Positions 16,221-55,256 are shown, numbered from the stretch's first letter. The stretch is 64,000 nucleotides of DNA from Acidimicrobiales bacterium (GCA_044220495.1 JBGAQY010000004.1:11069-75068), one strand, 5' to 3'. Program-made: numbers and translations. Notes: generated from the letters alone by a model not told the origin.

Positions 16221-16569
16221 GTGATGGTGAGTCGGCCTGTAGGCGGGGTTCTGTCTGGTGCTTGCGCACTTGGGTGACCATCCATCTAAGCGGCCTACCT
16301 GAGAACGTTGGGCGGGCAGCCCGATCTCTACTTGGCCTTGCTCCGGGTGGGGTTTACCGAGCCGAACGAGTTGCCCCGAACGCTGGTGCGCTCTTACCGC
16401 ACCTTTTCACCCTTACCTGTGTCGGCGAGCCGATCATCGGCGGTTTGTTTTCTGTGGCACTTTCCTGCAGATCACTCTGACTGGCTGCTAGCCAGCACCC
16501 TGCCCTGTGGAGCCCCGACCTTCCTCGACGAACACGTTCGCCGCGATCACCCGGCCAACTCACCATCAC
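16221..16569 (-). ncRNA. rnpB: RNase P RNA, bacterial type A
   Basis: The reverse strand contains GAGGAAGGUCGGGGCUCCACAGGGCA (P4 5' strand), CAGGAAAGUGCCACAGAAAA, GGUAAGGGUGAAAAGGUGCGGUAAGAGCGCACCAG, GUAAACCCCACCCGGAGCAAGGCCAAGUAG and ACAGAACCCCGCCUACAGG. The 5' end GUGAUGGUGAGUUGGCC pairs almost perfectly with the 3' end GGCCGACUCACCAUCAC to form P1. Confidence 0.9.
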
Positions 16570-29054: not shown

Positions 29055-29873
29055 ATGCCACGACCACTATGGAATGGATCGATCAGCTTCGGTTTGGTGA
29101 ATGTGCCGATCAAGCTGTTCAAGGCGCAGGCCCCAAAAGACGTTCGTTTCCACCAGCTGCATCAAAAAGACGGGGTTCGCATCCAGCAAAAGCGGGTGTG
29201 TCCAGCGGATGGTGAAGAGGTCGCTTACGACGAGATCGTCAAGGGATACGAAATCTCATCCGACCGATACGTCTTGATCGACCCTGAGGAACTTGCCTCG
29301 CTTGATCCCAAGGCAACCCACACGATTGAGATCCTCGACTTCGTTGACCTCGACGAGATCGACCCGGTGTATTTCGACAGCGGCTATTACGTCATCCCCG
29401 ACACGCGCGCTGAAAAGCCCTACGCGTTGTTGGTTGCCGCGATGGATGCCACGCACAAAGTCGCCATTGCTCGCTTTGTGATGCGCACCAAAGAGTATTT
29501 GTGTGCCGTGCGTCCGAAAGATGGCGCTCTTGTGCTCGAAACGATGTTCTACGCCGACGAGATTGTTTCGACTAGCGAGTTCGAGCTGGGTTCTGGCGAC
29601 CTCGAGCCGCCGGCCGAGCGCGAGCTCAAGATGGCTACTTCGCTAATCGAGTCTCTTTCAGGCGACTTCGAGCCCGAGAAGTATCGCGATGAATACCGCG
29701 ACAAGGTCATGGCGATGGTCGAGGCCAAGGCCGAGGGCAACGAGATCGTTACGCAGTCTGATGTTGCTGAGCCGGCGCCGATCGTCGACCTGATGGCTGC
29801 ACTCGAAGCAAGTTTGGCGGCTGCGAAAGAAAAGAAGGATGCCGAGCCCAAGGCTAAGCGGGCTCATGCATGA
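29055..29873 (+). CDS. ku: Ku DNA end-binding protein (NHEJ)
   Basis: 272 aa, with MPRPLWNGSISFGLVNVPIKLF at the N-terminus and a basic C-terminal tail. GGAAGGAGGG lies upstream of the ATG. No ligD gene is in the window. Confidence 0.9.
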   Translation: MPRPLWNGSISFGLVNVPIKLFKAQAPKDVRFHQLHQKDGVRIQQKRVCPADGEEVAYDEIVKGYEISSDRYVLIDPEELASLDPKATHTIEILDFVDLDEIDPVYFDSGYYVIPDTRAEKPYALLVAAMDATHKVAIARFVMRTKEYLCAVRPKDGALVLETMFYADEIVSTSEFELGSGDLEPPAERELKMATSLIESLSGDFEPEKYRDEYRDKVMAMVEAKAEGNEIVTQSDVAEPAPIVDLMAALEASLAAAKEKKDAEPKAKRAHA

Positions 29874-31546
29874 GCCGAGGTAGTCGCCACCGACGGGCAC
29901 ACACGCCTCAGCACGCGCGATTCACGTTGCGAGGCTTTTTCGGTCTTGCCAACTCGAGCGCGTTTAGCGAACGCACGTTGCACCCGAGCCTCGTCGCTAC
30001 ATACCGTTTGCGAACGGTCGCTGTTGGTGCGCTCATAACCGCAGCGGCGCTCGTCAATCTCGTGATCTACATGTTTTTCAGTGGATCAGACGGTATGTCG
30101 CAGAGTGGCTTCTTGACGGTAATGGTCTCGGGGATTGCCGCCCTCGCCGGCATCATTCTGACGCCGTGGAATCGCGTGCTCGTCACGAAATGGGCGTTGC
30201 GCGCGTTGTACGCGTGGTCTGTTTGCGGAATCTTGCTCATCAATTTGAGCATCTACTTCGACGGCGGTGGCGAGTCGGTTCTCTACGCAATGCTGCCAAT
30301 ACTCATTGTGTTCTTCGCGATTGCCTATCCGCAGCGAGCTCAGGCGCTGTTGTTTCTCGTTACGGTCGGCGCTTACTGCCTTGCTGTTGCACTGCGCGGT
30401 TGGGATCTCACCGCTGCTGAGGTCTACGTGCGCATGGCCAGTCTGGTGATGATGGCGTATGTCGCAAGTGTGTTGTCAGGTTGGTTGGCCACTGAGATGC
30501 GAGATCGCGCGCATTCATCCACGACTGCCGAACAGCGTGCTGGAATGCTCGACACCGTTGCCCGTGCTGCTCGACGCATCAGCTCGCTCGACGCCTCGCA
30601 CGTGCTCGGGGGAGCGTTGTCGGGCGCAATGGAACTTGGTTGTTTCGAGGCTGAAGTGTGGTTGCTCGACGGTGATCCTCCGATCCTCACTCTGCAGCGC
30701 CGCATTGCGATGGAACTCTCGTCTCCCCACGAAGAACTTGCCTCCAAGCTGTTCGGCCAAGCGCGCCTTCTTGGCACAACGCAGATCACCGAAGTCGGAA
30801 CCGACCGCGTTGTCGCTTGTTTGTTGCATCGCGAAGGCGAGCCGGCCGGCATCTTTTTGGTGCGCATGACTGAGAACGACAGCGAAGACCTATTGGTCAT
30901 CGAGTGTGTGGAGTTGCTGTCGGCGCAAGTGAGTGCGGGTCTCGATGTTGCTCGTAACGTCGCTGAGCGCCGCGGCCTTGAAGAGCGACTTGCTCACTGG
31001 GCGTTTCACGACTCGCTTACCGATCTGCCAAATCGCGTTTTGTTTGCCGACCGTCTGGAGCTCGCACTGGCTCGAACAGCGCGCGATGGCACCAAGGTCG
31101 CCGTGCTCTTCCTCGATCTCGACAACTTCAAGACGATCAACGACACATTGGGACACAGCGCGGGCGATGAGTTACTGCACGCGGTGGCGCACCGTTTGCA
31201 TGCATGTTTGCGACCCAATGACACCCTCGCTCGTTACGGCGGCGACGAGTTCGTCGTTTTGGTCGAACACGTCGAAAGTCCAGATGCCGCAGTGCTCGTC
31301 GCCCAACGCATCCTCGATTCGCTGAGCCGCCCGATATCTGTTGCCGGACACGACTTGTTGGTCAAAACGAGTATCGGAATTGCAATGACAGGAGCGCGTC
31401 CTGGTGCTGATTCAGACGTTCTGCGCAGAGCCGACATTGCGATGTATGACGCAAAAGCACGTGGCGGATCTTGCTATGTGCTTTCAAATACGCCTGCTTC
31501 AGACCTTCAATCCGTTAAAGATCCGCACCAAGAAGAGGCGAGTTAG
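29870..31546 (+). CDS. membrane-anchored diguanylate cyclase (GGDEF domain)
   Basis: 558 aa. It has about 6 N-terminal TM helices, a central GAF-like region and a C-terminal GGDEF domain. The active site (RYGGDEFVV) is intact and an RxxD I-site (RPND) lies 5 residues upstream. The ATG overlaps the ku stop (ATGA). Confidence 0.85.
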   Translation: MSRGSRHRRAHTPQHARFTLRGFFGLANSSAFSERTLHPSLVATYRLRTVAVGALITAAALVNLVIYMFFSGSDGMSQSGFLTVMVSGIAALAGIILTPWNRVLVTKWALRALYAWSVCGILLINLSIYFDGGGESVLYAMLPILIVFFAIAYPQRAQALLFLVTVGAYCLAVALRGWDLTAAEVYVRMASLVMMAYVASVLSGWLATEMRDRAHSSTTAEQRAGMLDTVARAARRISSLDASHVLGGALSGAMELGCFEAEVWLLDGDPPILTLQRRIAMELSSPHEELASKLFGQARLLGTTQITEVGTDRVVACLLHREGEPAGIFLVRMTENDSEDLLVIECVELLSAQVSAGLDVARNVAERRGLEERLAHWAFHDSLTDLPNRVLFADRLELALARTARDGTKVAVLFLDLDNFKTINDTLGHSAGDELLHAVAHRLHACLRPNDTLARYGGDEFVVLVEHVESPDAAVLVAQRILDSLSRPISVAGHDLLVKTSIGIAMTGARPGADSDVLRRADIAMYDAKARGGSCYVLSNTPASDLQSVKDPHQEEAS

Positions 31547-31851
31547 CCAACTTCTCAGGTAGTCCTTAGGCCCTGAAAAACGCCGCTAAATCGAGCTGAA
31601 TCGATCTTTTGTGCATCATCATGAAAATCGCTGTCACAAAGCGCGTTCTTTTCGAAAAAGCCTAAAAAAGATATAGACAAGCGCCACTTGGCTCATCAAT
31701 ACTGTGTGCCATTCCGGTTGGACAAGCGAGTGGTTCCAGCGCGTGCGCACGGGAACACATGGTGTTCTATCGGAATTGTTGCAGTTCTGAAATTGTTGAA
31801 GCGTTGTAATTCTTTTTTGTTATTCAACCGTGCTGAGGATGTGAGCTTGTA

Positions 31852-32085
31852 ATGAAGAAGTTGTCATGGCAGAACCGTGCGGCCTGTCGCGGCATCGACA
31901 CAGAAATCTTCTTCCCAATCTCTGATGAAGAGGCTGAGCCTGCGAAGGCTGTGTGTGGTGCTTGTCCCGTGCGTGAAGCGTGTCTCGAACACGCCCTTGC
32001 TGACCGCGAACGTGAAGGCGTTTGGGGTGGAGCGACCGAGCGCGAGCGTCGGCGCATTATCCGCCAGCGCAGGAAGTCCGCGTAG
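31852..32085 (+). CDS. WhiB-family transcriptional regulator
   Basis: 77 aa, with a four-Cys cluster (AACRG...CGACPVREAC), a GVWGG turn and a basic tail. It is preceded by a ~300 bp AT-rich leader. Confidence 0.9.
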   Translation: MKKLSWQNRAACRGIDTEIFFPISDEEAEPAKAVCGACPVREACLEHALADREREGVWGGATERERRRIIRQRRKSA

Positions 32086-32091
32086 TCGAAC

Positions 32092-33177
32092 TTGCCTGGG
32101 CTCGAGCCGTTCGGCGGATGGTCAGGTGTTCTTAGCCGCGTAATTGCGGGTGAGCGTCTCACCACCGCTGAGGCTTCAGGAGTTATGACCGATGTATTGC
32201 AAGGCAATGCAACGGCATCACAATTGGCGGCGCTTTTTTGCGTAATGCGTTCTCGTGGCGAAACCGTCGACGAGTTAAGCGGATTAGCGCAAGCACTATT
32301 AGAAGCGGCGGTTCCGCTCGACGGTCTCGCCGCTTCTACGCGTGAACGCCTGGTCGACACATGCGGCACCGGCGGCGATCGCAGCGGCACGATCAACGTG
32401 TCGACCATGGCGGCATTGGTTGTTGCTGCCGCGGGTGTGCCTGTGGCCAAACATGGCAATCGAGCGGCGTCGTCACAGACGGGTTCGGCCGATGTGCTCG
32501 AAGCTCTCGGCGTCGCCATCGATCTTGGTGCTGAGTCGGTCGTGCATTGCATCGAAGCAGCGAACATGGGCTTTTGCTTGGCGCCGCGATTCCATCCTGG
32601 CTTCCGTCACGTTGCCCCGATTCGTCGCGAGCTCGGCGTTGGCACTGCGTTCAATTTCTTGGGCCCGCTCATCAATCCGGCGCGAGTTGTGCGTCAAGTC
32701 ATTGGCGTGAGTGATCCGTCTGTTGCTGAGCTCATGCTCGGCGTGTTGCGTGAAAACGGCGCTATGCACGCGATGGTGCTCTATGGCCACGACGGGCTCG
32801 ACGAACTAACAACAACGACAACGTCAACCATTCATGAGTTGCGCGACGGCGCCGTAAATGTTTACGAGGTCGACCCCACGAAGCTGGGTATTTCGCCGGC
32901 CGACCCTGCGTCACTGAGAGGTGGTGCGCCCGCCGACAACGCTGAACGAGTGCGTCACATTTTGAGCGGCGAGCAAAGCCCGCAGTCAGAGATAGTGGCG
33001 TTGAATGCAGCGGCTGCCCTCGTCGTCGGCGGAGCGGCAAGCAATATCGAAGAAGGTTTCGCCAAGGCGAGCGAAGTCTTGGCCTCAGGCGAGGCGGCCA
33101 CGGTGCTCGCTCGTCTCGCCGAGCAGTCGCAAGTAGAGCGTGAACGCGAAGACTTTCTGCGCAACGAAGCTCGCTAG
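32092..33177 (+). CDS. trpD: anthranilate phosphoribosyltransferase
   Basis: 361 aa, with CGTGGDRSGTINVST, HGNRAASSQTGSADVLEALG and NFLGPLINP motifs. The TTG start lies 6 nt after the whiB stop. Confidence 0.85.
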   Translation: MPGLEPFGGWSGVLSRVIAGERLTTAEASGVMTDVLQGNATASQLAALFCVMRSRGETVDELSGLAQALLEAAVPLDGLAASTRERLVDTCGTGGDRSGTINVSTMAALVVAAAGVPVAKHGNRAASSQTGSADVLEALGVAIDLGAESVVHCIEAANMGFCLAPRFHPGFRHVAPIRRELGVGTAFNFLGPLINPARVVRQVIGVSDPSVAELMLGVLRENGAMHAMVLYGHDGLDELTTTTTSTIHELRDGAVNVYEVDPTKLGISPADPASLRGGAPADNAERVRHILSGEQSPQSEIVALNAAAALVVGGAASNIEEGFAKASEVLASGEAATVLARLAEQSQVEREREDFLRNEAR

Positions 33178-33212
33178 CTCTTGGTTCGCATAGCGCAGGC
33201 CTCACTGGCCAG

Positions 33213-33288
33213 CCTCTTTCAACCACGCGATATAACCAAACACAGGCGTGTCCGTTGCTGTTTTTGGCCTTATCGCGTGGCTGAAAGG
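33213..33288. repeat. palindromic intergenic repeat, copy C (76 nt)
   Basis: The arms are cctctttcaaccacgcgatataaccaaa and tttttggccttatcgcgtggctgaaagg, which are reverse complements of each other. An outer ccagcc/ggctgg pairing extends the stem. The copy lies just downstream of trpD. Confidence 0.8.
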
Positions 33289-33333
33289 TGATGGCTGGTA
33301 TCGCAGTCTGGGGCACTGTCACACCCCCTCGTC

Positions 33334-33558
33334 ATGATGGTCGGTATGGCAGAAATGACGATTAGTTGCACCGACTGTGCGTTGGCTGACGACGAAGCGG
33401 CCAAGGCTGAACATTGCGCAGATTGCATTGTCACGTTTATTAGCGGCCGAGATCCCGACGACGCCCTCGTAATCGACGCCGCCGAGGCGAGGGCCATGCG
33501 GTTGCTGGCAAACGCAGGTTTGATTCCTCGGTTGCGCCACGAGCGACGAGCGGGCTGA
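33334..33558 (+). CDS. small Cys-containing protein (CxxC...CxxC)
   Basis: 74 aa, containing ISCTDCALADDEAAKAEHCADCIV. It ends 13 nt before the GT4 gene. The start is uncertain because there are several Met codons in the first 8 residues. Confidence 0.45.
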   Translation: MMVGMAEMTISCTDCALADDEAAKAEHCADCIVTFISGRDPDDALVIDAAEARAMRLLANAGLIPRLRHERRAG

Positions 33559-33571
33559 CAGACTCGCAGGT

Positions 33572-34711
33572 GTGAGGCACTTGCTCGTCACCAACGACTT
33601 TCCACCCAAGCTTGGCGGCATTCAGTCGTATCTGTGGGAGCTGTGGCGGCGACTTCCGCCCGACGATGTGACCGTTCTTACGAGTCGCTACGAGGGGGCC
33701 GCTGAATTCGACAATCAACAGGCGTTTCGTGTCGTGCGAGCCAAAGAGTGGTGGTTGTTGCCGACGCCAAGACTAATTAGGCAAATAAACGATTTGGCCG
33801 ATGAAGTAGGCGCTCGATTTGTGGTGCTCGATCCGGCGTTGCCACTTGGCCTTGTCGGTCCGCACCTACGCAAGCCGTATGTCGTGATTGGGCACGGTGC
33901 TGAGTTCGTTATTCCGGCGCGCTTGCCGATTGCGCGCCAAGCACTGTTGAGAGTGGTGCGAAGTTCAGTGGCAGTCATTGCGAGTGGTGCGTACGTAGAG
34001 CGTGCTGCGCGCAGCCTTGGGCTTCCAGCCGGCATCGAATGCGTTTCGGTTCCGCCTGGGGTTGATCCGCAGCGATTTCATCCTTTGACAGGTCAGCAGC
34101 GAGCAGCGGCGCGCAGGCGTTACGGTGTCGGCGACGACGTGCCTCTTGTCGTTGGCGTGTCGCGATTGGTTCCGCGCAAAGGCTTCGACCGATTGATCCG
34201 CGCTAGCGCCCAGTTGCGCAGCGACGGTGTAAAGCTGCAAGTACTCATTGCCGGCAAGGGCCGCGAAGCAAAGCGTTTGCAGCAGCTAATCGACACACTC
34301 GAAGCGCCTGTGCGCATGCTCGGTCGCGTTGAAGACGACGATCTGCCTGAATTGCTGGGTGCGGCTGATGTGTTCTGCATGCCGTGTCACGACCGCTGGA
34401 TGGGCCTCGAGCGCGAAGGCTTTGGCATCGTCTTCGTCGAGGCTGCAGCAGCGGGGGTGCCTTCGGTGGCGGGTGACAGCGGCGGCTCAGCCGAGGCAGT
34501 CGAGAACAACAAGACGGGTTTGCTCGCACGCGGAAAGGTGACGTCAGGCGACGTTGCCCAAGCAATCCGGCGACTTATCGAAAGCGACGAAGCTCGAATC
34601 GAGATGGGCAGGGCCGCTCGCCGGGGTGCTGAAAGCACCTTTTCTTACGACCACCTTGCCGAACGCCTCTTGAACTTCCTCGATCAAATCGGGAAAGGCG
34701 TCCAGAGTTAG
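33572..34711 (+). CDS. GT4 glycosyltransferase, PimB'-like mannosyltransferase family
   Basis: 379 aa with a GTG start. The N-terminus LLVTNDFPPKLGGIQSYLWEL resembles actinobacterial PIM mannosyltransferases, and the C-terminal E-x7-E region is EGFGIVFVEAAAAGVP. Confidence 0.8.
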   Translation: MRHLLVTNDFPPKLGGIQSYLWELWRRLPPDDVTVLTSRYEGAAEFDNQQAFRVVRAKEWWLLPTPRLIRQINDLADEVGARFVVLDPALPLGLVGPHLRKPYVVIGHGAEFVIPARLPIARQALLRVVRSSVAVIASGAYVERAARSLGLPAGIECVSVPPGVDPQRFHPLTGQQRAAARRRYGVGDDVPLVVGVSRLVPRKGFDRLIRASAQLRSDGVKLQVLIAGKGREAKRLQQLIDTLEAPVRMLGRVEDDDLPELLGAADVFCMPCHDRWMGLEREGFGIVFVEAAAAGVPSVAGDSGGSAEAVENNKTGLLARGKVTSGDVAQAIRRLIESDEARIEMGRAARRGAESTFSYDHLAERLLNFLDQIGKGVQS

Positions 34712-34860
34712 GTCTCGAAAACGCGAAGTTGGTGCCAACTAACAATGTGGCGTCGATTAAGAGCCCATATCCAGCGTCGTTTGCCCAGAATCGGTGTAAA
34801 GCCGGCGAACGCTAAGCGCCCCTTGCTACGCTCGGGCCCAAATCTGGGTCCAGAAAGCAG

Positions 34861-35301
34861 ATGCCAATGATGGAGCAAGCGACTGAACGCGTAATGGTCA
34901 AGGCACCACCGCAACGTTGCTATGACATCGCCACTGATTTCGAGGCTTACGCCGACTGGTCGAGCGCCATTCAAAAGGTTGAAATCGTTGAGCGCGACAA
35001 CGAAGGTCGCGCCGAGTTGGTTCGTTTTCAGGCCGAGTCGATGGGTCGCAGCACACAGTTCACTCTTAGGTACGACTACTCCAATGCGCCGACGCGCCTC
35101 AGCTGGCAGCTCGATGAAGGAGACATTGAACGACGTGTTGACGGTGAATATTTTTTTGAGCCGGTTGACGATCAAACCGAGTTGACTTACCACCTGGTGA
35201 TCGAGCTTCGCGTTCCTATGCCGGGGTTCTTGAAACGACGCGCTGAAGGTCAAATCCTCGGAGCCGCTCTTCGAGAACTCAAGGAGCGAGCAGAATCCTG
35301 A
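34861..35301 (+). CDS. SRPBCC (cyclase/dehydrase-like) ligand-binding protein
   Basis: 146 aa. Contains VKAPPQRCYDIATDFEAYADWSSAI...YHLVIELRVPMPGFLKRRAE, typical of polyketide_cyc2/SRPBCC proteins. Confidence 0.75.
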   Translation: MPMMEQATERVMVKAPPQRCYDIATDFEAYADWSSAIQKVEIVERDNEGRAELVRFQAESMGRSTQFTLRYDYSNAPTRLSWQLDEGDIERRVDGEYFFEPVDDQTELTYHLVIELRVPMPGFLKRRAEGQILGAALRELKERAES

Positions 35302-35362
35302 GCGTGCTTCAAAAGTTCTTTCAACAGTCGGTGCAACGCGAGTTCAGCGGCGGTAGATCAGC

Positions 35363-37288
35363 GTGATCCTCATTGAGTTGCAAGATGCTGTGCGTCGAAA
35401 GTTTCACCTTGAGTTTCATCCGCGACTCACCGTTATTCCAGGGCTCGCTGAAGATCAGCGCGGTGATCTCATTCGACACATCACGACAGCTTTTGATGGC
35501 AAGCAAGTCGAGATGGCATTCAATGTTGACGTTGGTGGACAGCCACAACCCTTGACGCCCGCGTTGATGATGGCGATTGGGCTCGCCAACAGCGGCATCG
35601 ACAACGTGATGGGGCCGGCCGACCTGCCTGGTGCTCGCATTCCTGGTGTCGCTGGCGCGCCCAGTGAGCCGGTGGTTCCGGCGTCAGAGGCCACCGCGCG
35701 CGACGCGGAGATTTCCTCAGTGCGTACCGAGATCGCGCGCTTAGAACGTCAGCGCGATGAGCTGGCGGTTGAAATACAACGCACACGCGACTCAACCGAT
35801 GATGACGACGTGCAAACACTCGATAACGCGCAGCGCGAGTTTGCTGCGGCTGATGTTCGCGTCGGTGAGCTGAAACGCGCGTTGGGTGAAGCGTCAGAAC
35901 GTGAACCGAGTGAAGACAAACGCGAACGCCTGTTGCGTGTGCGCGAAGCAATCGAAAGCAAGCTCGAAGATCTAAAGGCTGAACTAGCGCAACCTGTTCC
36001 CGACACCGAACCGGTTTGGCTTGCTTGGAACGCGGCCAATGATGCGCGCGAGGGCGACGGGTTGGCAGCCCTTCCAATCGGTAGTGCTGCGATTGCTGAA
36101 GAATGGGCGGCGAAACAAAAGGCGGTTCGTCGACTGCAAGAAGATGTAGCGCCCCCCGCTTGGTTGCTGCAACAGGTGCAAGACGAATACGACGAAGCAT
36201 TGGCTCGTCTCACGGCCATGCGTATTCAGAGCAGTGAAGACATCGACGTGGGTACGCAACTCGCCAAGGCAGAGACCCGTTTTGCCGACGCCGAGGCGGC
36301 ACTGGTCGAGCTGAAGTCAAGTAATGACGACGAAGTTGCAAGCCTTCGGGCCGAGATAGCTCACCTGAAGCAGCAGGCGGTTGCGCTACTCGGTGATGAT
36401 CCAGGCGATGATCAACTCGAAGCAGCGTTACTAGAACACGCGCGCACAACTCCGCCCGTGCTCACGCCTATGCAAGCCCTTCAGGCTGCTTTGGCCGAAG
36501 TGGGGCGAATGGTTGCCGAAGAAGACGCCCTTCAGAAGGGCGCCGCTTGGCTTGATGAAGTTCGCGTAGCAATCGAGCGCAAAGCCGTTGTTCAAGAAGA
36601 GTTTGCCGCTGCGACCCTTGACTACGGCGATGTGAAAGCGCAACTAGCCGCGCTCGACGAAGTGAGCACTTTGGGCTTGGATGTCGACGAGGCGGGGCTC
36701 CGCGACGCGCTTGTTCAAGCTGAAGCAGATCTTCAAGCGGCAGTCGAAAAGCGCACCCGTGCGCGTGACTCTATTGATCAAGGTCGGTCAGATGTGGCCG
36801 AGCGCATTGCCGAACTTCAACGAGAACATGAATCTACGTCGACAGAATTGGCGAGAGCGCTAGAAGAACTTGAAGATTTGATGTCGGCACAGGCATCAAA
36901 TCTTGTTGCTCAACACGGTGCGTCGAGTGATCGTCAAGACCGTCCGTGGTGGGAGGGTGGCGGCGCAAAGTTCGAGCGCCGGCGTACACCCAAGAAGTAT
37001 TCAGGTGTTGTTGACGTTTCTCACGTTTCTGTCGACGACGTCGGTCTTTACGTGTTGTCGCGAGCTGCGGGTCTGCGGCGAGCAGGGCGAAGTGAAAGTG
37101 TTCCCTTGATAATCGATGCCGCTTTTGACGGTTTAGGGGCGCACGCAGTGACCACTCTTCTCGATGCATTGCTGAGAGTGGCGCCGATTGTGCAGATCAT
37201 CTACTTCTCCACAAGCCGAGTTGCAGAAGAGTGGGCAACGCGCCAAGACGAGATGATGGTGGCCGTTTGCCGGCCCGAACCGCTCTGA
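35363..37288 (+). CDS. SMC/Rad50/RecN-like coiled-coil protein with degenerate Walker A/B motifs
   Basis: 641 aa with a GTG start. The N-terminus FHLEFHPRLTVIPGLAEDQRGDLIRHI occupies the position where GxxGxGKS/T is expected. About 450 aa of heptad-rich Ala/Glu/Leu/Arg sequence follows. The C-terminus has VPLIIDAAFDGLG...IVQIIYFS where Walker B and the D-loop are expected. Confidence 0.55.
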   Translation: MILIELQDAVRRKFHLEFHPRLTVIPGLAEDQRGDLIRHITTAFDGKQVEMAFNVDVGGQPQPLTPALMMAIGLANSGIDNVMGPADLPGARIPGVAGAPSEPVVPASEATARDAEISSVRTEIARLERQRDELAVEIQRTRDSTDDDDVQTLDNAQREFAAADVRVGELKRALGEASEREPSEDKRERLLRVREAIESKLEDLKAELAQPVPDTEPVWLAWNAANDAREGDGLAALPIGSAAIAEEWAAKQKAVRRLQEDVAPPAWLLQQVQDEYDEALARLTAMRIQSSEDIDVGTQLAKAETRFADAEAALVELKSSNDDEVASLRAEIAHLKQQAVALLGDDPGDDQLEAALLEHARTTPPVLTPMQALQAALAEVGRMVAEEDALQKGAAWLDEVRVAIERKAVVQEEFAAATLDYGDVKAQLAALDEVSTLGLDVDEAGLRDALVQAEADLQAAVEKRTRARDSIDQGRSDVAERIAELQREHESTSTELARALEELEDLMSAQASNLVAQHGASSDRQDRPWWEGGGAKFERRRTPKKYSGVVDVSHVSVDDVGLYVLSRAAGLRRAGRSESVPLIIDAAFDGLGAHAVTTLLDALLRVAPIVQIIYFSTSRVAEEWATRQDEMMVAVCRPEPL

Positions 37289-37368
37289 AGCTTGCAGGTG
37301 AAATTACCGATGGTGGAAGTGTTTTTTGGCGGTTAACCTCGGGTAATCAAACCCCCGGAGGTGGTCGA

Positions 37369-38508
37369 GTGACAGATCTCAGCGCCGAACTGGTACAGCG
37401 TCTCGCACGATATGGAGCAGGCGAAAATCCCGTTGTTTCGCTCTTCTTGAATATCGATGGAAGGCAAAAGGTTCGACCGGAGGATTACCGACTTCACCTC
37501 GAAGCGATGCTGAAGGATGCGTTAGAGAAGTCACCGGCAAAGTCGGCGCAAGCTGTGCTCACACGAATTTCTGATTTCGTTACCAACGAGTTCGAGCGTC
37601 AAAACATGCGCGGACTCGCAATCTTTGGTTGCGGCGACGAACTCTGGGAAGTGGTTGTGTTGCCAGTTCCCGTCGACGATCAACTTGTTGTCAACCGCAC
37701 GCCTTACATTCGACCGCTCGAAACGATTCTCGACGAATACGAAAGCGTCGGTGTGTTGCTAACTGACAAACAGCGCGCGCGGGTGTTGGTGATCGAGCTT
37801 GGTCGCATTGTCGAGCGTTCTGAAATATTCGATCCGTTGCCGCGTCACGATGACGACAAAGGCGACTGGCGCAAAGATCACGTCAAGGCTCATTCGACCG
37901 TTGCTGCGCAACATCACTTCCGTAACGCGGCGCAGGCAATGTTTGACCTCTATCAACGTCGTCCGTTTCAACACGTTTTGTTGTGCGTGGCTGAAGAGTC
38001 GACGCCAGAACTCGAGCGTCAGCTGCATGCGTACCTTCGCAACCGTGTGATCGGTCGTTGCAACCTTGGTGTCAATGCAACTGACGACGATGTGATTGCT
38101 ACTGCCTTTGAGTTCGCACAAAGGGCCGAGCGCAAGCAAGAGTCTGAGTTCGTCTCGAAGTTGCGCGCCGGCGTGGCATCAAACGCGGCAGCAGGGCGCA
38201 CCAACGGCAATTCGATCGGCGCGGTGGCGGGGCTCGAACACACGTTAAATGCGGTCTTTGAAAAGCGGGTGGATACGTTGCTGGTCTCTGAGGGCTACGC
38301 CGCCGAAGGCTGGCGTTGTACTTCATGTTCGTACATCGCAACGATGGGCCGTAAGTGCCGTATGTGCGGGTCAGAGATGTCTTTGGTCGAAGATGTGGTC
38401 GAAGAAGCCGTCGAAGATGCGCTTGGCCAGAGCTGCCGTGTCGAATTTTGTTCAGAAAATGCTGACCTAGATGTCCTCGGTCGCATCGGAGCCTTGTTAC
38501 GTTTCTGA
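37369..38508 (+). CDS. archaeo-eukaryotic release factor (eRF1/Pelota)-like protein with Zn-ribbon insert
   Basis: 379 aa from GTG 37369, with GGAGG 9 nt upstream. The C-terminal domain has GLEHTLNAVFEKRVDTLLVSEGY and the terminal ...DVLGRIGALLRF, matching the eRF1_3/Pelota domain-3 hallmarks. A CTSC-x9-CRMC knuckle lies between them. No GGQ motif is visible. Confidence 0.65.
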   Translation: MTDLSAELVQRLARYGAGENPVVSLFLNIDGRQKVRPEDYRLHLEAMLKDALEKSPAKSAQAVLTRISDFVTNEFERQNMRGLAIFGCGDELWEVVVLPVPVDDQLVVNRTPYIRPLETILDEYESVGVLLTDKQRARVLVIELGRIVERSEIFDPLPRHDDDKGDWRKDHVKAHSTVAAQHHFRNAAQAMFDLYQRRPFQHVLLCVAEESTPELERQLHAYLRNRVIGRCNLGVNATDDDVIATAFEFAQRAERKQESEFVSKLRAGVASNAAAGRTNGNSIGAVAGLEHTLNAVFEKRVDTLLVSEGYAAEGWRCTSCSYIATMGRKCRMCGSEMSLVEDVVEEAVEDALGQSCRVEFCSENADLDVLGRIGALLRF

Positions 38509-38509
38509 C

Positions 38510-39481
38510 GTGACCTCAAAATCGATCGATCTCGCGGTGGGTGTGGACTTCGGCGGCACCAAGGTCTTGGGCACCCTTGTCGACCCTCAGGGCAACATCG
38601 TGGCCGAGCAGCGGGTTCGCACCCCTTACGACGGCGACCAGCTGATCGAGGTAATGACCGAGCTAGTTGGCGCCTTTGAAGAGAAGGCTGGTGGTCCCGT
38701 TGCCGGCATTGGCGTCGGGGCTGCTGGCTTGGTCGATCGCAATGGCGTTCTGCACTACGGCCCTAATGTTGGTGGTGTTACCGACGTTGATCTCAAGAGC
38801 GGCATAGAAGCGCGGTTGCCGGGCAAAACAGTTGTGATCGACAACGATGCCAACGTTGCTACCTGGGCCGAACATCTTTTCGGCGCTGGTAAAGGCGCGC
38901 GAGAGATGGTCATGGTGACGCTCGGCACCGGTATCGGTGGCGGAATTGTCGTCGGTGGCCAACTGTTTCGTGGATACAACGGGTTCGCAGCCGAAGTCGG
39001 ACACATGACTCTGGTTGCCGGCGGTGTGCAGTGCGCGTGTGGCAAGCAAGGTTGTTGGGAGGCTTATGCATCAGGGCGCGCCCTGGGCCGTCTCGGTCGT
39101 GATGCGGCTGAAGATGCAGCCTTCCCGCGTGCGATCGAACTAGCGGGAAGTATCGATGCCATTCGCGGCGAACACGTGACTGCTGCTGCGCGCGAAAAAG
39201 ATCCCACCGCTCTCGCTGTGCTCGATGAGTTCTCACGTTGGTTGGCAATTGGCGTTACCAACCTCATCGCGTTGTTCGATCCGCAGACCGTTGTGATTGG
39301 TGGGGGATTGGCCGAAGAAAGCGAGCTCTTTCTCGACTCTGCCAAGCGGCACCTCGCCGATCTCACTTTTGGTTCTACCAACCGTCCCGAAGTGCCACTT
39401 GTCGTTGCCACGTTGGGCGAACGCGCCGGAGCGATTGGCGCCGCAATGACTGTGCACGGATACCAAATCTCAGAAGTGTGA
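38510..39481 (+). CDS. ROK-family glucokinase
   Basis: GTG start immediately after the upstream stop. Contains VGVDFGGTKV, GTGIGGGIV and the ROK zinc motif GHMTL...CACGKQGCWEAYASG. Confidence 0.85.
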   Translation: MTSKSIDLAVGVDFGGTKVLGTLVDPQGNIVAEQRVRTPYDGDQLIEVMTELVGAFEEKAGGPVAGIGVGAAGLVDRNGVLHYGPNVGGVTDVDLKSGIEARLPGKTVVIDNDANVATWAEHLFGAGKGAREMVMVTLGTGIGGGIVVGGQLFRGYNGFAAEVGHMTLVAGGVQCACGKQGCWEAYASGRALGRLGRDAAEDAAFPRAIELAGSIDAIRGEHVTAAAREKDPTALAVLDEFSRWLAIGVTNLIALFDPQTVVIGGGLAEESELFLDSAKRHLADLTFGSTNRPEVPLVVATLGERAGAIGAAMTVHGYQISEV

Positions 39482-40182
39482 AGCTCGGGGTTCTAGTCCC
39501 ACAGTTGCGCGACAATCACCGCGCCGCGCTTGAGACTGCAAAACGAGCCGAAGATTGCGGCCTCGATGGTGTGTTCGTGTTCGATCACCTTTGGCCGCCC
39601 GGGTCGCCAAGCGGAAACGCTCTGTCAACGTTTCCGCTGTTAGGGGCCATCGCTGGCGCTACACGTTCTGTGACGGTCGGCACCCTTGTTGCGCGTGTTG
39701 GAATAGTTCACAACGACGCACTTACAAACGAGTTTCGCTCGGTCATCGACATTGCGGGGTCGCGACTGTTGGCCGGCCTTGGCACCGGCGACCGCATGAA
39801 TCGTCCCGAGGATGATGAATACGGTGTGCCGCATCTCACTTTCGATCGACGCGTCGAGTTGCTAAACGAAGCTTGCGAGCAATTGGTGAGTGAAGGCGTG
39901 CGCGTCTGGTTGGCCGGATCGTCAGAAGCGGTGCGCACTGCGGCCGAACTGCACGGCGTGCCAGTTCACTTGTGGCAGCCGGGTGAAGAACGATTGGCTG
40001 TTGGTGGATTGCGTCCGTTTACGTGGGGCGGCTTTGTTGAAGGCTCGGCCGACGAGATCGCTGTTCAGTTGAACCATCCGCTGCGAGCGGGCGCAAGTTG
40101 GAGTGTTTGTGCAACAAAAGGCGGGACCGACACCCCGGGATTTATCGAGAAGTTGATGTTGGCAAAAGCCCGTCTCGGGTAG
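39478..40182 (+). CDS. luciferase-like monooxygenase (LLM) family oxidoreductase
   Basis: The GTG start overlaps the glucokinase stop (GTGA). Contains KLGVLVPQ...[16 protein letters not shown]...LGTGDRMN, typical of LLM/F420-dependent enzymes. It is short at 234 aa. Confidence 0.65.
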
Positions 40183-40202
40183 CGGCGCACTACATTGCCT
40201 TT

Positions 40203-41378
40203 ATGCAATTCCGTCGAATTAACGACCTGCCGCCGTACGTTTTCACAATCATCAATCAGCTGAAAATCGACGAGCGTCGCGCCGGTGCCGATGTTGTCGA
40301 TCTTGGATTCGGTAATCCCGACATTCCGTCGTCGCCCGTTGCCGTTGAGAAGTTGATTGAAGCGGCTCAAAACGGCCGCAACCATCGCTACTCGTTGAGT
40401 CGAGGCATTCCCAAACTGCGCGAGGCCGTTGCTGCGCGTTACTCACGACAATTCAACGTTGAGCTCGACCCAGAAACCGAAGTCATTGCGACCATCGGTG
40501 CCAAAGAAGGTTTGTCGCATTTGATGTGGGTGACATGCGAGCCGGGTGACGTAGCCATGGTGCCTACGCCGTCATATCCAATACACATCTACGCACCGCT
40601 GTTTGCTGGCGCGCAGGTGCGTCACGTTCGCATGGGCCCTGGCGTTGACTTTGTTGCAAACATGAAAGAGGCGTGGGAGACCAGCCACCCCAAGCCGCGC
40701 GTTGCCATCGTGTCGTTCCCGCACAATCCGACAACCTATTGCGTCGATCTTGCTGAGATGACCGCAATTGTTGACTTCGCTCGTGAGCACGACATGTTGT
40801 TGGTGCACGATTTTGCTTATTCCGACAATGGTTTCGACGGCTACCAACCGCCATCAATACTCCAAGTTCCCGGCGCAAAAGATGTTGCGGTAGAGCTTTG
40901 GACGACCACAAAGAGTTTTTCGATGGCCGGCTGGCGTATGGCGTTCATGGTGGGTAACGCAGAAGTTGTTGCTGCATTGGCCAAGTTGAAGAGCTACCTC
41001 GATTACGGAACGTTCCAACCAATCCAGATCGCAACAACAGTTGTGATGAATGAAGACCCTGACTATCCAAAAGAAGTGAACGCGATTTACCAGTCGCGTC
41101 GCGATGTTTTGTGCGACGGCCTGAAGCGCATCGGCTGGGACATTGAAAAGCCACGCGGGTCGATGTTTGTCTGGGCCCCAATTCCTGAGCCTTATCTCGA
41201 GCTCGGTTCGATTGAGTTCGCCAAGTTGCTCATTACTGAAGCCAAGGTCGCAACGTCGGTTGGCGTGGGCTTTGGTCCTGGGGGCGAAGGTGCCGTGCGC
41301 TTTGCCTTGATCGAAAACGAACAGCGCATTCATCAAGCACTTCGGGGCATGAAGAAGGCACTAACAAAACTGACATGA
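40203..41378 (+). CDS. class I/II PLP-dependent aminotransferase (COG0436, AlaC/AspC-like)
   Basis: Contains [21 protein letters not shown]...[10 protein letters not shown] and the PLP-lysine region [13 protein letters not shown] chose ATG 40203 over the track start at 40098. Confidence 0.85.
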
Positions 41379-42022
41379 AGCGTTACGTGCTGCGGCTGTG
41401 GTTGCCCGATGTGCCTGGTGCGCTCGGTCGAGTTGCGGGTGCTTTGGGCTCCGTCGATGCGTCTCTCACAGGCATTGACATTCTCGATCGTGGTGCTGGC
41501 TGGGCCATTGACGAACTTGTTGTCGAGTTGGCAAATAACAGCGCGTCAGTTGATCAATTGGTTGACGCGATTTCACAAGTCGAGGGCGTCAAAATCGAAG
41601 ACATTCGCGCCGCTCCGTCGGATCCCGTCGACCCGCGTGTTGATGCACTTGAATCTGCTGCACAACTGATCGAACAGCGAAGCGCGAGCTCTTTGCGCGA
41701 AATGTTGGTCGATCATGTCTTGCATGACCTTTCGGCTGACTGGGTTGCACTCAGTCGACTAGACGCTGAAGACACAGTTATTGCGCGCGGCGCTCCGCCG
41801 AGTGCAGCGTGGCTGAGTGCGTTCGTTGCTGGCAGTCGTTCGGCGGGAGCAAGTCAAAATCGTGAGCATGGGCCGTCAGATATTGCATGGGCCGAGCTCA
41901 CCAACGATGCAGCCGCTTTGATCGTCGGGCGTGATGGCCGACCTTTCCATGCACGCGAGCGGCGGCAACTTGATGCTCTGGTTCGCATAGCCGATCAAAG
42001 GCTCAGTGACCTCTCAGCGTGA
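41375..42022 (+). CDS. ACT domain protein with C-terminal GAF-like region
   Basis: 215 aa. The N-terminal ACT-like fold motif is [20 protein letters not shown]. The ATG overlaps the aminotransferase stop (ATGA). Confidence 0.55.
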
Positions 42023-42419
42023 TAGCTGCAGGCCAACGACTGCTGTGAGTGGAGCTTGTCTTCATCTGTTAACGATTTCGTTATTGCAACCGGCGAGCTG
42101 ATCGGAAAGACTGGCGACAGCAAGAACAAGTACCCCAGTTTTGGGAGAGTGCATGAGATTGCAAAGCGCAAAAATGGCAACACCGGTCTTTCGAAGACAT
42201 ATCTTCGAGCACCTGAGGTCTCCTCCGCTTCGAGAATGAGGGCAGAGCGTCAGCTCTTACGTCTTGAGTGTTCGAATGTGCTGAGTCCCGAACATCTGGC
42301 TGTCTTTGGGCAACCTTCGGTGTCCGTATGAAGCCCCAAACCAAGTTCGGTTAACCGGTGCGAAGAACACTGACCCACTTGATGAATTATTCCCTTGACT
42401 CTGTGAAGGAGAATGTGTG

Positions 42420-42455
42420 AAAAGAGGGCGCCTTCGGGCGCCCTCTTTTTGTTTG
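42420..42455 (+). terminator. rho-independent terminator
   Basis: A perfect 10-bp GC-rich stem, agagggcgcc/ggcgccctct, with a UUCG tetraloop (42423-42446), is followed by tttttgtttg. An A-run upstream makes it potentially bidirectional. Confidence 0.8.
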
Positions 42456-42523
42456 TGGGATTACTCGGCCAGGTGGGTACTGTTCTTTCATTCACAGATG
42501 TCAATGACAGTTAAGGAGTCATT

Positions 42524-43027
42524 TTGCCCACTCATTTCACGCTCCCCGGGATGACGCAAGAGAACGGCGACAAGGTTGCAGAGATCTTGCAAGGCCGTTT
42601 GAGCGCATTGATCGATACTCAATTGACGCTCAAGCACATCCACTGGAATGTGGTCGGTGCCAACTTCATTGGTGTTCATGAAATGCTCGATCCGCAGTAC
42701 GCCGCAGTGAGCGAAATGTCTGACGTGATCGCCGAACGCATTGCTGCACTTGGACATGAGCCGATGGGTACACCAGGTTTCGTCGCCAAGAACCGCACGT
42801 GGGATGACTATTCGCTTGGCCGCGCTCGCACCATGGAGCACCTGCACGCGCTCGACCAGGTCTACGCGGGGTTGATTGGCGACCATCGCAAAGCAATGAG
42901 CGAACTCGACGACCTCGACATGGTCTCGCAAGACGTGATCATTGGTCAGCTCGAGACACTCGAGAACTTCCACTGGTTCGTGCGCGCACACCTTGAAGAC
43001 GACAAAGGCAACATCACCGCCGGCTGA
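42524..43027 (+). CDS. dps: Dps-family DNA-binding ferritin-like protein
   Basis: 167 aa with a TTG start, 6 nt after AAGGAG. Contains LKHIHWNVVGANFIGVHEMLDPQ and the ferroxidase-site residues. Confidence 0.9.
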   Translation: MPTHFTLPGMTQENGDKVAEILQGRLSALIDTQLTLKHIHWNVVGANFIGVHEMLDPQYAAVSEMSDVIAERIAALGHEPMGTPGFVAKNRTWDDYSLGRARTMEHLHALDQVYAGLIGDHRKAMSELDDLDMVSQDVIIGQLETLENFHWFVRAHLEDDKGNITAG

Positions 43028-43030
43028 TAT

Positions 43031-43561
43031 CTACTTGAGCATCGCAGTTCGGTAGTACTTCAGTTCTTCGATGCTCTCGCGTATGTCGTCGAGCGCCCTG
43101 TGAGTGGTCTGTTTCTCCGGGGCGCTCGCCAGCACATCTGGATACCAACGACGAGCTAGTTCTTTGAGCGTCGACACGTCTACTGATCGGTAGTGCAAAA
43201 ACTCTTCGATTTCGTGCCAGTGTGTTGATAGGAATCTACGGTCGGTTCCAATCGAATTGCCCGCAAGCGGAACGGTGCGCGCTTCGGGTATGTACTTCTT
43301 GAGAAACGCCATCGTTTCGCGACGTGCGTCGCTCTCGCTGTTTGGTGATGCTTTGATCGCGTCGACTAGTCCACTGGTCGTGTGCATCTTGCGGACGAAG
43401 TCGTCCATGGTTGAGAGTTCTTCGTCGGTTCGTTTGATCACGATGTCGGGACCAAGTGCAACAACATTTAGATCGTCATCGGTGACGATGGTGGCAACCT
43501 CGACAATGCAGTGGTGCTGAGGGTCGAGGCCGGTCATTTCAAGGTCCATCCAGGCGAGCAT
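43031..43561 (-). CDS. orn: oligoribonuclease
   Basis: 176 aa of the DEDDh exonuclease type, with LAWMDLEMTGLD, GNSIGTDRRFL and HRALDDIRESI motifs. Confidence 0.9.
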   Translation of the reverse strand: MLAWMDLEMTGLDPQHHCIVEVATIVTDDDLNVVALGPDIVIKRTDEELSTMDDFVRKMHTTSGLVDAIKASPNSESDARRETMAFLKKYIPEARTVPLAGNSIGTDRRFLSTHWHEIEEFLHYRSVDVSTLKELARRWYPDVLASAPEKQTTHRALDDIRESIEELKYYRTAMLK

Positions 43562-43643
43562 GCACCGCAGCGTAGGCGTTCATCGCTGTATCGACGCGTA
43601 CACGGTTAGCCGTTCAAAGCCGCTAGCCGTCTAGAATTCGTGC

Positions 43644-44105
43644 GTGATTACGATCTTTGTGAAACGTCTTGTTGATGATGACCTGGCTCTGCCGTCCTAT
43701 GCCCGTTTAGGTGACGCCGGGGCCGACCTGATAGCAGCCGAGCCCGCCGAACTCGCACCAAATGGGGGTCGCGCGTTGATTCCCACTGGTGTTGCCATTG
43801 CGATTCCACACGGTTATGCAGGTTTCGTTCAGCCTCGAAGCGGCCTTGCCGCGAAACACGGCGTGACTGTTTTAAACAGTCCCGGCCTTATCGACGCTGG
43901 TTACAGGGGAGAGCTCAAGGTTGCCCTTATCAACACCGACCCAACGGCGGTGTTCAAGATCGAGCGCGGCGACCGCATTGCGCAGCTTGTTGTGCAGGCT
44001 GTCGAAGAAGCTGAGTTTTCGGTTGTAGACGAGTTGCCTCAAGATGAAGAGACGCCGGGTGGTCGCGCAATTCGTGGTGCCGGTGGGTTCGGTCACAGCG
44101 GCTAG
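43644..44105 (+). CDS. dut: dUTP diphosphatase
   Basis: 153 aa with a GTG start. Contains GDAGADL, PRSGLAAKHG, GLIDAGYRGE and a C-terminal RGAGGFGHSG. Confidence 0.9.
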   Translation: MITIFVKRLVDDDLALPSYARLGDAGADLIAAEPAELAPNGGRALIPTGVAIAIPHGYAGFVQPRSGLAAKHGVTVLNSPGLIDAGYRGELKVALINTDPTAVFKIERGDRIAQLVVQAVEEAEFSVVDELPQDEETPGGRAIRGAGGFGHSG

Positions 44106-46438: not shown

Positions 46439-46513
46439 GCGGACGTGGCTCAGTGGTAGAGCACAACCTTGCCAAGGTTGGGGTCGCGGGTTCGAATCCC
46501 GTCGTCCGCTCCA
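46439..46513 (+). tRNA. tRNA-Gly (GCC)
   Basis: Cloverleaf structure: acceptor gcggacg/cgtccgc, anticodon loop cuuGCCaa, T-arm gcggg-uucgaau-cccgu, and an encoded CCA. Confidence 0.95.
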
Positions 46514-55181: not shown

Positions 55182-55256
55182 GGCGGCGTAGCCGAGTGGT
55201 TCAGGCAGGGGCCTGCAAAGCCTTGTACACGGGTTCGAATCCCGTCGCCGCCTCCA
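55182..55256 (+). tRNA. tRNA-Cys (GCA)
   Basis: Acceptor ggcggcg/cgccgcc, anticodon stem ggggc/gccuu with loop cuGCAaa, T-arm acggg-uucgaau-cccgu, discriminator U and an encoded CCA. Confidence 0.95.

Follow-up and report, generated by a model that had tools for sequence, protein, structure and literature searches.

Balon is a bacterial hibernation factor that occupies the ribosomal A site independently of mRNA, lacks the NIKS and GGQ motifs, and acts with EF-Tu (PMC10901736). Msmeg1130 and Rv2629 bind ribosomes in the manner of Balon and inhibit translation in vitro, and genes coding for Balon are typically described as lying in stress-response operons (PMC10901736). In this report, we analyze a protein of this type, encoded by open reading frame B (ORF-B), and the gene directly upstream of it, ORF-A, in 64,000 nucleotides (nt) of DNA from an Acidimicrobiales bacterium (GCA_044220495.1 JBGAQY010000004.1:11069-75068). 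This whole stretch is called the window, and coordinates are counted from its first letter. By fold and by family membership, both established computationally, ORF-B is a member of the Balon-type clade (baeRF_family10) of bacterial homologues of the archaeo-eukaryotic release factor aeRF1. The clade to which it belongs is a distinct Balon variant, in which a zinc ribbon is kept and an LPRH(D/E)DDxGD loop replaces the GGQ or AGQ motif.

The elements of ORF-B that bear on this assignment are as follows, with lengths in amino acids (aa).

37369..38508, plus strand: ORF-B, GTG start, 379 aa; bacterial aeRF1 family 10, Balon-type three-domain protein
37837..37893, plus strand: LPRHDDDKGDWRKDHVKAH, the middle-domain loop that corresponds to the GGQ loop of eRF1; no Gln
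38317..38367, plus strand: four-Cys zinc ribbon (C317, C320, C330, C333), an insert in the C-terminal domain of ORF-B
38470..38508, plus strand: C-terminal motif DVLGRIGALLRF with the stop codon, matching the GGIGAILRY-type end of aeRF1 and Pelota

Homology searches with ORF-B found more than 1100 homologues, and motif counts were taken over 120 listed ones. The Pfam baeRF_family10 model (PF18854) matches residues 112-248 of ORF-B with 99.3 bits, against a cutoff of 27.1, and is carried by all 120 listed homologues. A single-sequence search of the PDB with phmmer retrieved only the Balon homologue Msmeg1130 (8v9j/8v9l, E 3e-10), and a profile built from 26 sequences of the ORF-B family aligns with the entire Msmeg1130 protein (E 1.2e-19). 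Residues 24-302 of Msmeg1130, reassembled from the phmmer alignment, themselves match PF18854 with 125 bits. Therefore, ORF-B and a structurally characterized Balon homologue share a Pfam family. Matches to three NCBIfam families named as ribosome hibernation factors (MSMEG_1130, Rv2629 and AOC03_06830) are weak (41-47 bits). Two further models fall under their cutoffs, namely Pfam eRF1_3 at the C-terminus (18.9 bits, cutoff 25.8) and NCBIfam TIGR03676 (28.4 bits, cutoff 234.7).

The AlphaFold2 model of ORF-B has a mean predicted local distance difference test score (pLDDT) of 88.4 and a predicted template modeling score (pTM) of 0.78, and it exhibits the three-domain architecture of aeRF1-type proteins, with an N domain, an RNase-H-like middle domain and a Pelota-type C domain. 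In a Foldseek search of the PDB with this model, ribosome-bound Msmeg1130 (8v9l_z) ranks first, with a match over the full length (E 9e-28, template modeling score (TM) 0.82, root-mean-square deviation 3.5 A). Subsequent matches are aRF1, the Balon of Psychrobacter urativorans, Rv2629, many eRF1 entries and Pelota/Dom34. Neither GGQ nor NIKS is present in the translation of ORF-B. The protein ends in the pattern G.[IV][GA]A.LR[FYW], as do the listed homologues in 119 of 120 cases.

A first-pass annotation of this DNA had called ORF-B eRF1/Pelota-like, without a GGQ motif and with a CTSC-x9-CRMC zinc knuckle. The first proposal is borne out by the PF18854 match, the three-domain fold and the structural matches to Balon, aRF1, eRF1 and Pelota, and the absence of GGQ likewise stands. 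The knuckle proves to be a true ribbon that aligns with that of the aRF1 C domain. All sequence strings quoted in that annotation, namely GLEHTLNAVFEKRVDTLLVSEGY, CTSC-x9-CRMC, DVLGRIGALLRF (the C-terminus), PRHDDDKGDWRKDHVKAH, RLTVIPGLAEDQRGDL and PLIIDAAFDGLG, are found in the translations. Two of its statements need correction. The GLEHTL motif starts ~80 residues ahead of the C-terminal motif, not ~110. Also, the view that bacterial aeRF1-like families have no experimentally assigned function is outdated, because Balon, Msmeg1130 and Rv2629 have been characterized structurally and biochemically as hibernation factors (Nature 2024, PMC10901736).

The start of ORF-B is relevant to these comparisons. 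The longest possible reading begins with the GTG at 37231 and gives 425 aa, as in the deposited public protein P0002, and would overlap the end of ORF-A by 58 nt. However, the ~120 listed homologues have lengths of 365-385 aa, their N-termini coincide with the GTG codon at 37369, and a GGAGG sequence is located at 37357-37361, 7 nt 5' of that GTG. Therefore, the 379-aa reading, with its start at 37369, is correct.

The zinc ribbon is a consistent feature of this clade. The arrangement CxxC..CxxC, which is CxxC-x9-CxxC in ORF-B, is present in 120 of 120 listed homologues. In profile alignments, the ribbon of ORF-B aligns Cys-for-Cys with the zinc ribbon in the C domain of Methanosarcina mazei aRF1 (3ir9), and the corresponding position in Msmeg1130 is the Cys-less segment GTVGADGSLYADGEIAPHSHA. 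Many bacterial aeRF1 families carry a two-strand insert at the site of the ribbon (Burroughs and Aravind, PMC6514570). A beta-hairpin insertion unique to the C domain of Balon was reported and suggested to shape the engagement of EF-Tu (PMC10901736). We infer that this hairpin is the two-strand insert of Burroughs and Aravind, so that ORF-B would keep the ancestral ribbon where Balon has a derived hairpin.

The second distinguishing feature is a loop of the middle domain that links strand three to the long helix and reads LPRHDDDKGDWRKDH. Among the listed homologues, the core LPRH(D/E)DDxGD is near-invariant in the Acidimicrobiia clade (LPRHDDDKGDW in ORF-B), and the loop Trp and the final His vary in ~10%. 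Confidence in the ORF-B model is lowest at this loop (pLDDT 56-79), as would be expected of a loop that becomes ordered only on the ribosome. At the GGQ position, Msmeg1130 reads ..QERAGQ.., whereas the Acidimicrobiia clade has Gly-Asp instead of Gly-Gln. Burroughs and Aravind flagged family 10 for a well-conserved glutamine and as potentially catalytic (PMC6514570), and the Gln of the Msmeg1130 AGQ is probably the residue to which they refer. They also remarked that the length of the GGQ loop shows a "striking lack of constraint", most notably in baeRF-1 families without the glutamine (PMC6514570).

We next consider ORF-A, whose features are given here.

35363..37288, plus strand: ORF-A, GTG start, 641 aa; SMC/Rad50-shaped protein of an uncharacterized Acidimicrobiia family
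35363..35647, plus strand: N-terminal half-head, aa 1-95; three strands, the P-loop-position loop, one helix and a further pair of strands, ending in the conserved DLPGA at aa 87-91
35441..35464, plus strand: degenerate Walker A, G27-LAEDQ-R33-G34; Arg at the Lys position, second Gly and Ser/Thr lost
35684..36916, plus strand: helical arms, aa 108-518 (~410 aa); apex at ~aa 344-385, with two short helices
36995..37288, plus strand: C-terminal half-head, aa 545-641; modeled as helix, strand, helix, strand, helix, strand
37289..37368, plus strand: gap between ORF-A and ORF-B, exactly 80 nt

Relatives of ORF-A were collected by searching 1.84 billion representatives exhaustively with HMMER, which yielded 77 sequences at E<=1e-3, including 14 at E<=1e-30. 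Some of the longer relatives (~570-920 aa) match one or both ends of ORF-A, and shorter ones match only the N- or C-terminal part. Word-indexed searches were swamped by coiled-coil words: the full-length sequence found only itself, and a profile of the heads alone recovered two fragments. Beyond coiled-coil noise, ORF-A matches nothing in Pfam, NCBIfam, the PDB sequences or the PADLOC models. The SMC_prok_A model, for example, scores 21 bits over the coiled coil only. None of 44 aligned family members matches an ATPase family, and the heads-only profile gave no PDB match at E<=10. ORF-A is thus not a sequence-detectable member of the SMC/Rad50/RecN group. A 640-aa homologue, P0124 (JGI), is automatically annotated as a "chromosome segregation ATPase". 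This name is probably an over-annotation driven by the coiled coil, because the family lacks the Walker A Lys and the catalytic Glu.

The shape of the protein is more informative. An AlphaFold2 model based on the 44-sequence alignment (A6), which was also used for the column counts below, has a pLDDT of 89 and a pTM of 0.40, a low pTM being expected for an elongated molecule. In this model, the order of elements is that of an ABC/SMC head, with the P-loop position after strand 3 and before helix 1, and with the Walker B position at the end of the strand formed by residues 582-585. The model and the sequence reveal no hinge domain and no Cys at the apex, so there is no zinc hook; the whole protein has a single Cys. 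The top Foldseek matches in the PDB are Rad50 (E 4.8e-7), MukB, JetC, LmuB, an Smc head with coiled coil, and condensin, and generic coiled-coil proteins rank below these SMC/Rad50-type matches. Because the TM scores are low (~0.2) and the coiled coil contributes to them, these matches support the architecture and are not proof of homology. A profile comparison of the family with Escherichia coli RecN by hhalign gave one weak alignment (E 0.016, probability 2.8%), which places aa 578-623 of ORF-A on the Walker B (LIFDE), D-loop and H-loop (QVMCVTH) of RecN in the predicted register. It is useful for motif register and not as proof of homology. The layout of N-terminal head, coiled coil and C-terminal head that had been proposed from the sequence therefore agrees with the model and the Foldseek matches, with a coiled coil of ~410 aa (108-518) in place of the ~450 aa first estimated.

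The proposed degeneracy of the Walker motifs extends across the family. At the Walker A columns of the 44 sequences, G27 is conserved in 34 and R33 in 38, Lys occurs once, and GK[ST] never. At Walker B, D585 is conserved in 38 of 44, and the residue that follows is D in 18, A in 11, G in 5, S in 4 and E in 3. The motifs of the C-terminal half-head of ORF-A are YVLSRAAGLR at the position of the ABC signature, PLIIDAAF at Walker B and VQIIYFS at the H-loop, and in the family the signature position reads YVL[AS]R, not LSGG, and the H-loop lacks His. Conservation is found elsewhere, at H19, P20, D87-L-P-G90, Y563, R567, R572 and P581, as well as at Q611 (43/44) and W624 (44/44). These column counts show the degeneracy to be ancient and fixed. 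ORF-A is thus a real protein under selection, with an SMC/Rad50-like shape and a head that is almost certainly incapable of canonical ATP hydrolysis. With the Walker A Lys, catalytic Glu and H-loop His gone across the family, it is most likely an ATPase-dead scaffold or a dimeric coiled-coil adaptor.

The relation between the two genes was assessed from their surroundings. ORF-A and ORF-B lie on the same strand, and the 80-nt spacing stated in the first-pass annotation is exact. A promoter and terminator scan of positions 34600-39000 detected no sigma-70-type promoter-like site anywhere in that range and no terminator-like site in the gap between the two genes; the sole terminator-like site of the scan falls inside ORF-B. 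Downstream, an ORF for a ROK-family (glucokinase-like) protein at 38471-39481 starts, as called, 38 nt before the ORF-B stop and so overlaps the 3' end of ORF-B. The spacing of ORF-B to the ROK gene is thus no looser than its spacing to ORF-A. The called ROK gene of locus L018 overlaps the end of its ORF-B homologue likewise.

We compared the window with homologous stretches, which carry L numbers, and read the context of each over +/-5-7 kilobases (kb). Four loci come from genome contigs and 10 from metagenome contigs, and most contexts were obtained through exact-protein look-ups. All loci were scanned with profile hidden Markov models (HMMs) of the ORF-A heads, with a baeRF10 HMM, and with ArsA and small-protein queries. 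A block with the order GGDEF, WhiB, TrpD, GT4, SRPBCC, a slot of variable content, baeRF10, ROK, (LLM), aminotransferase, ACT, Dps, Orn and Dut is conserved across Acidimicrobiia metagenome-assembled genomes. The occupants of the slot and the associated genes are distributed as listed.

Window 29870-35301 and 38471-44105: co-directional housekeeping array, with WhiB at 31852-32085, the oligoribonuclease (Orn) on the minus strand, a GT4 glycosyltransferase, an LLM oxidoreductase and a dUTPase (Dut)
Nine loci (window, L001, L015, L016/17, L018/19, L003, L021, L026, L027): ORF-A directly 5' of baeRF10
Eight loci (L004, L006, L007, L008, L009, L011, L013, L020): ArsA/Get3-like ATPase and a helical protein of 76-110 aa 5' of baeRF10, no ORF-A
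Two lineages (L022-L024, P0193 locus): ORF-A followed directly by ROK, no baeRF10
One locus (L025): ORF-A in an unrelated context
One locus (P0159 locus): ORF-A, downstream gene unread
One locus (L005): baeRF10, upstream slot with neither ORF-A nor ArsA
One locus (L002): baeRF10, upstream slot unclear
L020:5534-6933, L022:4438-5954, L027:2-660 and L003:2612-4013: pair of ArsA-like ATPase and small helical protein, recurrent in many Acidimicrobiia loci directly 5' of ORF-A, baeRF10 or both

Where ORF-A precedes baeRF10, the gaps measure 22-247 nt. The ArsA-like protein combines ArsA_ATPase with ArsA_HSP20, a C-terminal HSP20-like domain, and the small helical protein has a conserved "HLQAAA.." motif. 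The full set of ArsA, small protein, ORF-A and baeRF10 is found in L003 and L027, and in L027 the first three of these genes run into one another, with overlaps of 4 nt each. The simplest reading is that the ancestral order was ArsA/Get3-like, small protein, ORF-A, baeRF10 and ROK, that separate lineages then underwent clean losses of individual genes, and that the lineage of the window lost ArsA and the small protein from the slot. Adjacency of ORF-A and ORF-B, as first noted in the window, therefore recurs in nine ORF-A lineages and fails in eight baeRF10 loci that lack ORF-A and in three ORF-A lineages that lack baeRF10. It is frequent and old, but not obligate, and is indistinguishable from the synteny of the block.

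Several other observations concern these loci. In L003, which belongs to an Acidimicrobiales metagenome-assembled genome, two tandem ORF-A paralogues with shorter arms (L003:4073-5413, 446 aa, and L003:5480-6964, 494 aa) lie between the small protein and baeRF10. In L025, a 917-aa relative of ORF-A (L025:6001-8754) lies outside the block among metabolic genes (CoA-transferase, amidohydrolase); therefore, the ORF-A family is not confined to the neighborhood of baeRF10. A 411-aa ORF that lies 5' of baeRF10 in L002 might have been a divergent ORF-A, but was rejected, as it is rich in Arg and Pro, has the look of an out-of-frame artifact, and has no profile match. The possibility that ORF-A is itself a diverged ArsA/Get3, raised by their occupying the same slot in some loci, was rejected because the two coexist in L003, L022, L027 and the P0193 locus, and because the topology of the ORF-A head is ABC-type, not SIMIBI-type. 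The window also holds a class A RNase P RNA (16224-16562, minus strand, 265 bits), tRNA-Gly(GCC) (46439-46513, plus strand) and tRNA-Cys(GCA) (55182-55256, plus strand), which is consistent with a chromosomal, non-mobile context. The GC content is flat across the region.

Our preferred reading, to which we assign a probability of roughly 0.6, is that ORF-B is a Balon-type A-site factor that silences and protects ribosomes, and that ORF-A is an ATPase-dead SMC-like scaffold and a common but dispensable neighbor. By analogy with Msmeg1130, Rv2629 and Balon, ORF-B would be expected to bind the ribosome and EF-Tu. Most likely, it would bind the ribosomal A site as a non-hydrolytic mimic of tRNA or of a release factor. 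Its N domain would be situated at the decoding center, the conserved loop of the middle domain would extend toward the peptidyl-transferase center, and the C domain would face EF-Tu. Binding would then silence ribosomes and protect them under stress. ORF-A and ORF-B would be neighbors through an old array of Acidimicrobiia genes inside a housekeeping block, with ORF-A not an obligate partner. On this account, ORF-B is a variant within the recently characterized Balon/baeRF family 10, ORF-A represents an undescribed family with a known architecture, and a module composed of the two is not established.

Several points weigh against this reading. The scores of 41-47 bits to the hibernation-factor families are far under the equivalog cutoffs of 320-480 for NF052287, NF052288 and NF052289, and ORF-B and Msmeg1130 are only ~20% identical, so that the transfer of function between them is an inference. 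The ribbon and the His/Asp-rich loop are foreign to the characterized Balons and could indicate another activity or another GTPase partner. For ORF-A, the ABC-like reading of the head depends on one AlphaFold2 model together with the low-TM Foldseek matches. In addition, adjacency to baeRF10 is kept in 9 of the 12 ORF-A lineages with a readable downstream gene, in which pairs of ORF-A sequences are 22-35% identical, and such deep adjacency is also what a functional link would give. Finally, the absences of genes apply to the +/-5-7 kb around each locus, and a partner might have been relocated elsewhere in the genome.

A possible, although rather doubtful, alternative separates ORF-A from translation. 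According to this proposal, ORF-A works with the ArsA/Get3d-like ATPase, with its HSP20 domain, and the small protein as a chaperone or scaffold or as a module for chromosome or cell organization, and the lineage of the window has lost or relocated these two partner genes. Proteins of the SMC type usually function together with small accessory subunits. ArsA, the small protein and ORF-A follow one another in this order in L003, L022-L024, L027 and the P0193 locus, also at loci without baeRF10, and the three genes overlap by 4 nt each in L027. However, the slot beside ORF-A lacks ArsA in the window, L001, L015, L016, L018 and L026, with no ArsA found in the 64-kb window or the stretches read for these other loci; the small protein is also absent from the window. 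Conversely, in eight loci ArsA and the small protein are present and ORF-A is missing.

The first-pass annotation had suggested that ORF-A and ORF-B constitute a two-component translation-surveillance or conflict module that acts on stalled ribosomes, by analogy with the cooperation of eRF1 or Pelota with ABCE1. We consider this unlikely. The conserved, co-directional adjacency described above is what the proposal predicts, and both families are limited to the same Actinomycetota/Acidimicrobiia lineages. However, the surrounding genes are all equally syntenic, so the adjacency is explained by conservation of the block, and either gene occurs without the other (eight baeRF10 loci and three ORF-A lineages). 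ORF-A is also coupled more tightly to ArsA and the small protein, through the overlaps in L027, than to baeRF10. The analogy with ABCE1 itself is unsupported: the one head of ORF-A is split, neither an Fe-S domain nor a second nucleotide-binding domain is present in it, and its nucleotide-binding motifs are lost, so ATP-driven splitting cannot come from it. In addition, no PADLOC defense-system model matches ORF-A or ORF-B, and the locus has the character of a housekeeping region with flat GC content, not of an island.

It seems improbable that ORF-B is an active A-site enzyme, such as a peptidyl-tRNA hydrolase or a Vms1-like protein that cleaves the CCA end of tRNA. Such an enzyme would use LPRH(D/E)DDxGD(W)xxDH, with Gly-Asp in place of Gly-Gln and possibly a bound metal. 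The loop is almost invariant although the listed sequences are 45-70% identical overall, in contrast to the lack of constraint on loop length reported for baeRF-1 families, and family 10 was singled out as potentially catalytic (PMC6514570). An archaeal-type zinc ribbon is also kept. Nevertheless, the Gln itself is missing, the loop Trp and second His vary in ~10% of the listed homologues, and no hydrolase or nuclease family is matched. Moreover, the closest characterized relative, Msmeg1130, has AGQ and yet acts as a translation inhibitor and hibernation factor (PMC10901736). We give little credence to a broader speculation in which the zinc-ribbon clade is a distinct A-site factor, whose loop performs chemistry at the peptidyl-transferase center or reads a specific state of the ribosome, and which joins the dead ORF-A, the Get3d-like/HSP20 chaperone and the small protein in a quality-control or hibernation complex.

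Balon-type factors are the recently discovered third family of bacterial hibernation factors, and the repurposing of a release-factor scaffold is at issue in them. The ORF-B clade looks intermediate, with Balon-like N and middle domains and an aRF1 zinc ribbon at the site where Balon contacts EF-Tu, and its GGQ-position loop is under much tighter constraint than has been described for those baeRF-1 families in which the catalytic glutamine is missing. The clade thus provides a test case for the evolution of EF-Tu recognition and for whether chemistry at the peptidyl-transferase center is retained in bacterial aeRF1 homologues. The ORF-A family, in turn, offers an SMC/Rad50-shaped protein that selection has maintained although all canonical ATPase residues are lost, and that recurs beside a Get3d-like chaperone and a ribosome factor.

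Comparison with known systems places the two proteins as follows. ORF-A resembles ABCE1 (Rli1) only in the loose ABC likeness of its head fold: in ABCE1, two complete nucleotide-binding domains are combined with an N-terminal 4Fe-4S domain and there is no coiled coil, whereas ORF-A has one split, degenerate head and long arms. With SMC, Rad50, RecN, MukB, JetC and LmuB, ORF-A shares a split head joined by long helical arms and the order of strands and helices. Unlike SMC, Rad50 and RecN-type proteins, it has no profile match, no Walker A, no catalytic Glu, no LSGG and no H-loop His, and in comparison with SMC and Rad50 it is shorter, with arms of ~410 aa and neither hinge nor zinc hook.

ORF-B resembles aRF1, eRF1 and Pelota/Dom34 in domain architecture, in the zinc ribbon of the C domain (3ir9), in the C-terminal motif and in a weak match to eRF1_3. 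It differs from them in its lack of GGQ and NIKS and in scores under the TIGR03676 and eRF1_3 cutoffs. Like the Balon of P. urativorans (8rd8, 8rdv, 8rdw; NF052287), it lacks GGQ and NIKS and has the same fold (Foldseek E 1e-18, TM 0.68), and the same mode of A-site binding is presumed, but the two are only 12-14% identical. The likeness is closest to Msmeg1130 and Rv2629 (PDB 8v9j, 8v9l, 8v9k; NF052288, NF052289), with which ORF-B shares PF18854, the three-domain ribosome-bound conformation (TM 0.82), the lack of NIKS and an end of the type ..A.LR[FW]. Msmeg1130 differs in having a Cys-less hairpin where ORF-B has a four-Cys ribbon, and ..QERAGQ.. where ORF-B has LPRHDDDKGDW. The genomic context also differs, as ORF-B lies in a housekeeping block and Balon genes typically lie in stress-response operons. 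Finally, Balon has a loop that traps bL27, an HP motif at the decoding center and, in its C domain, the beta-hairpin that contacts EF-Tu; ORF-B has its zinc ribbon at the site of the hairpin.

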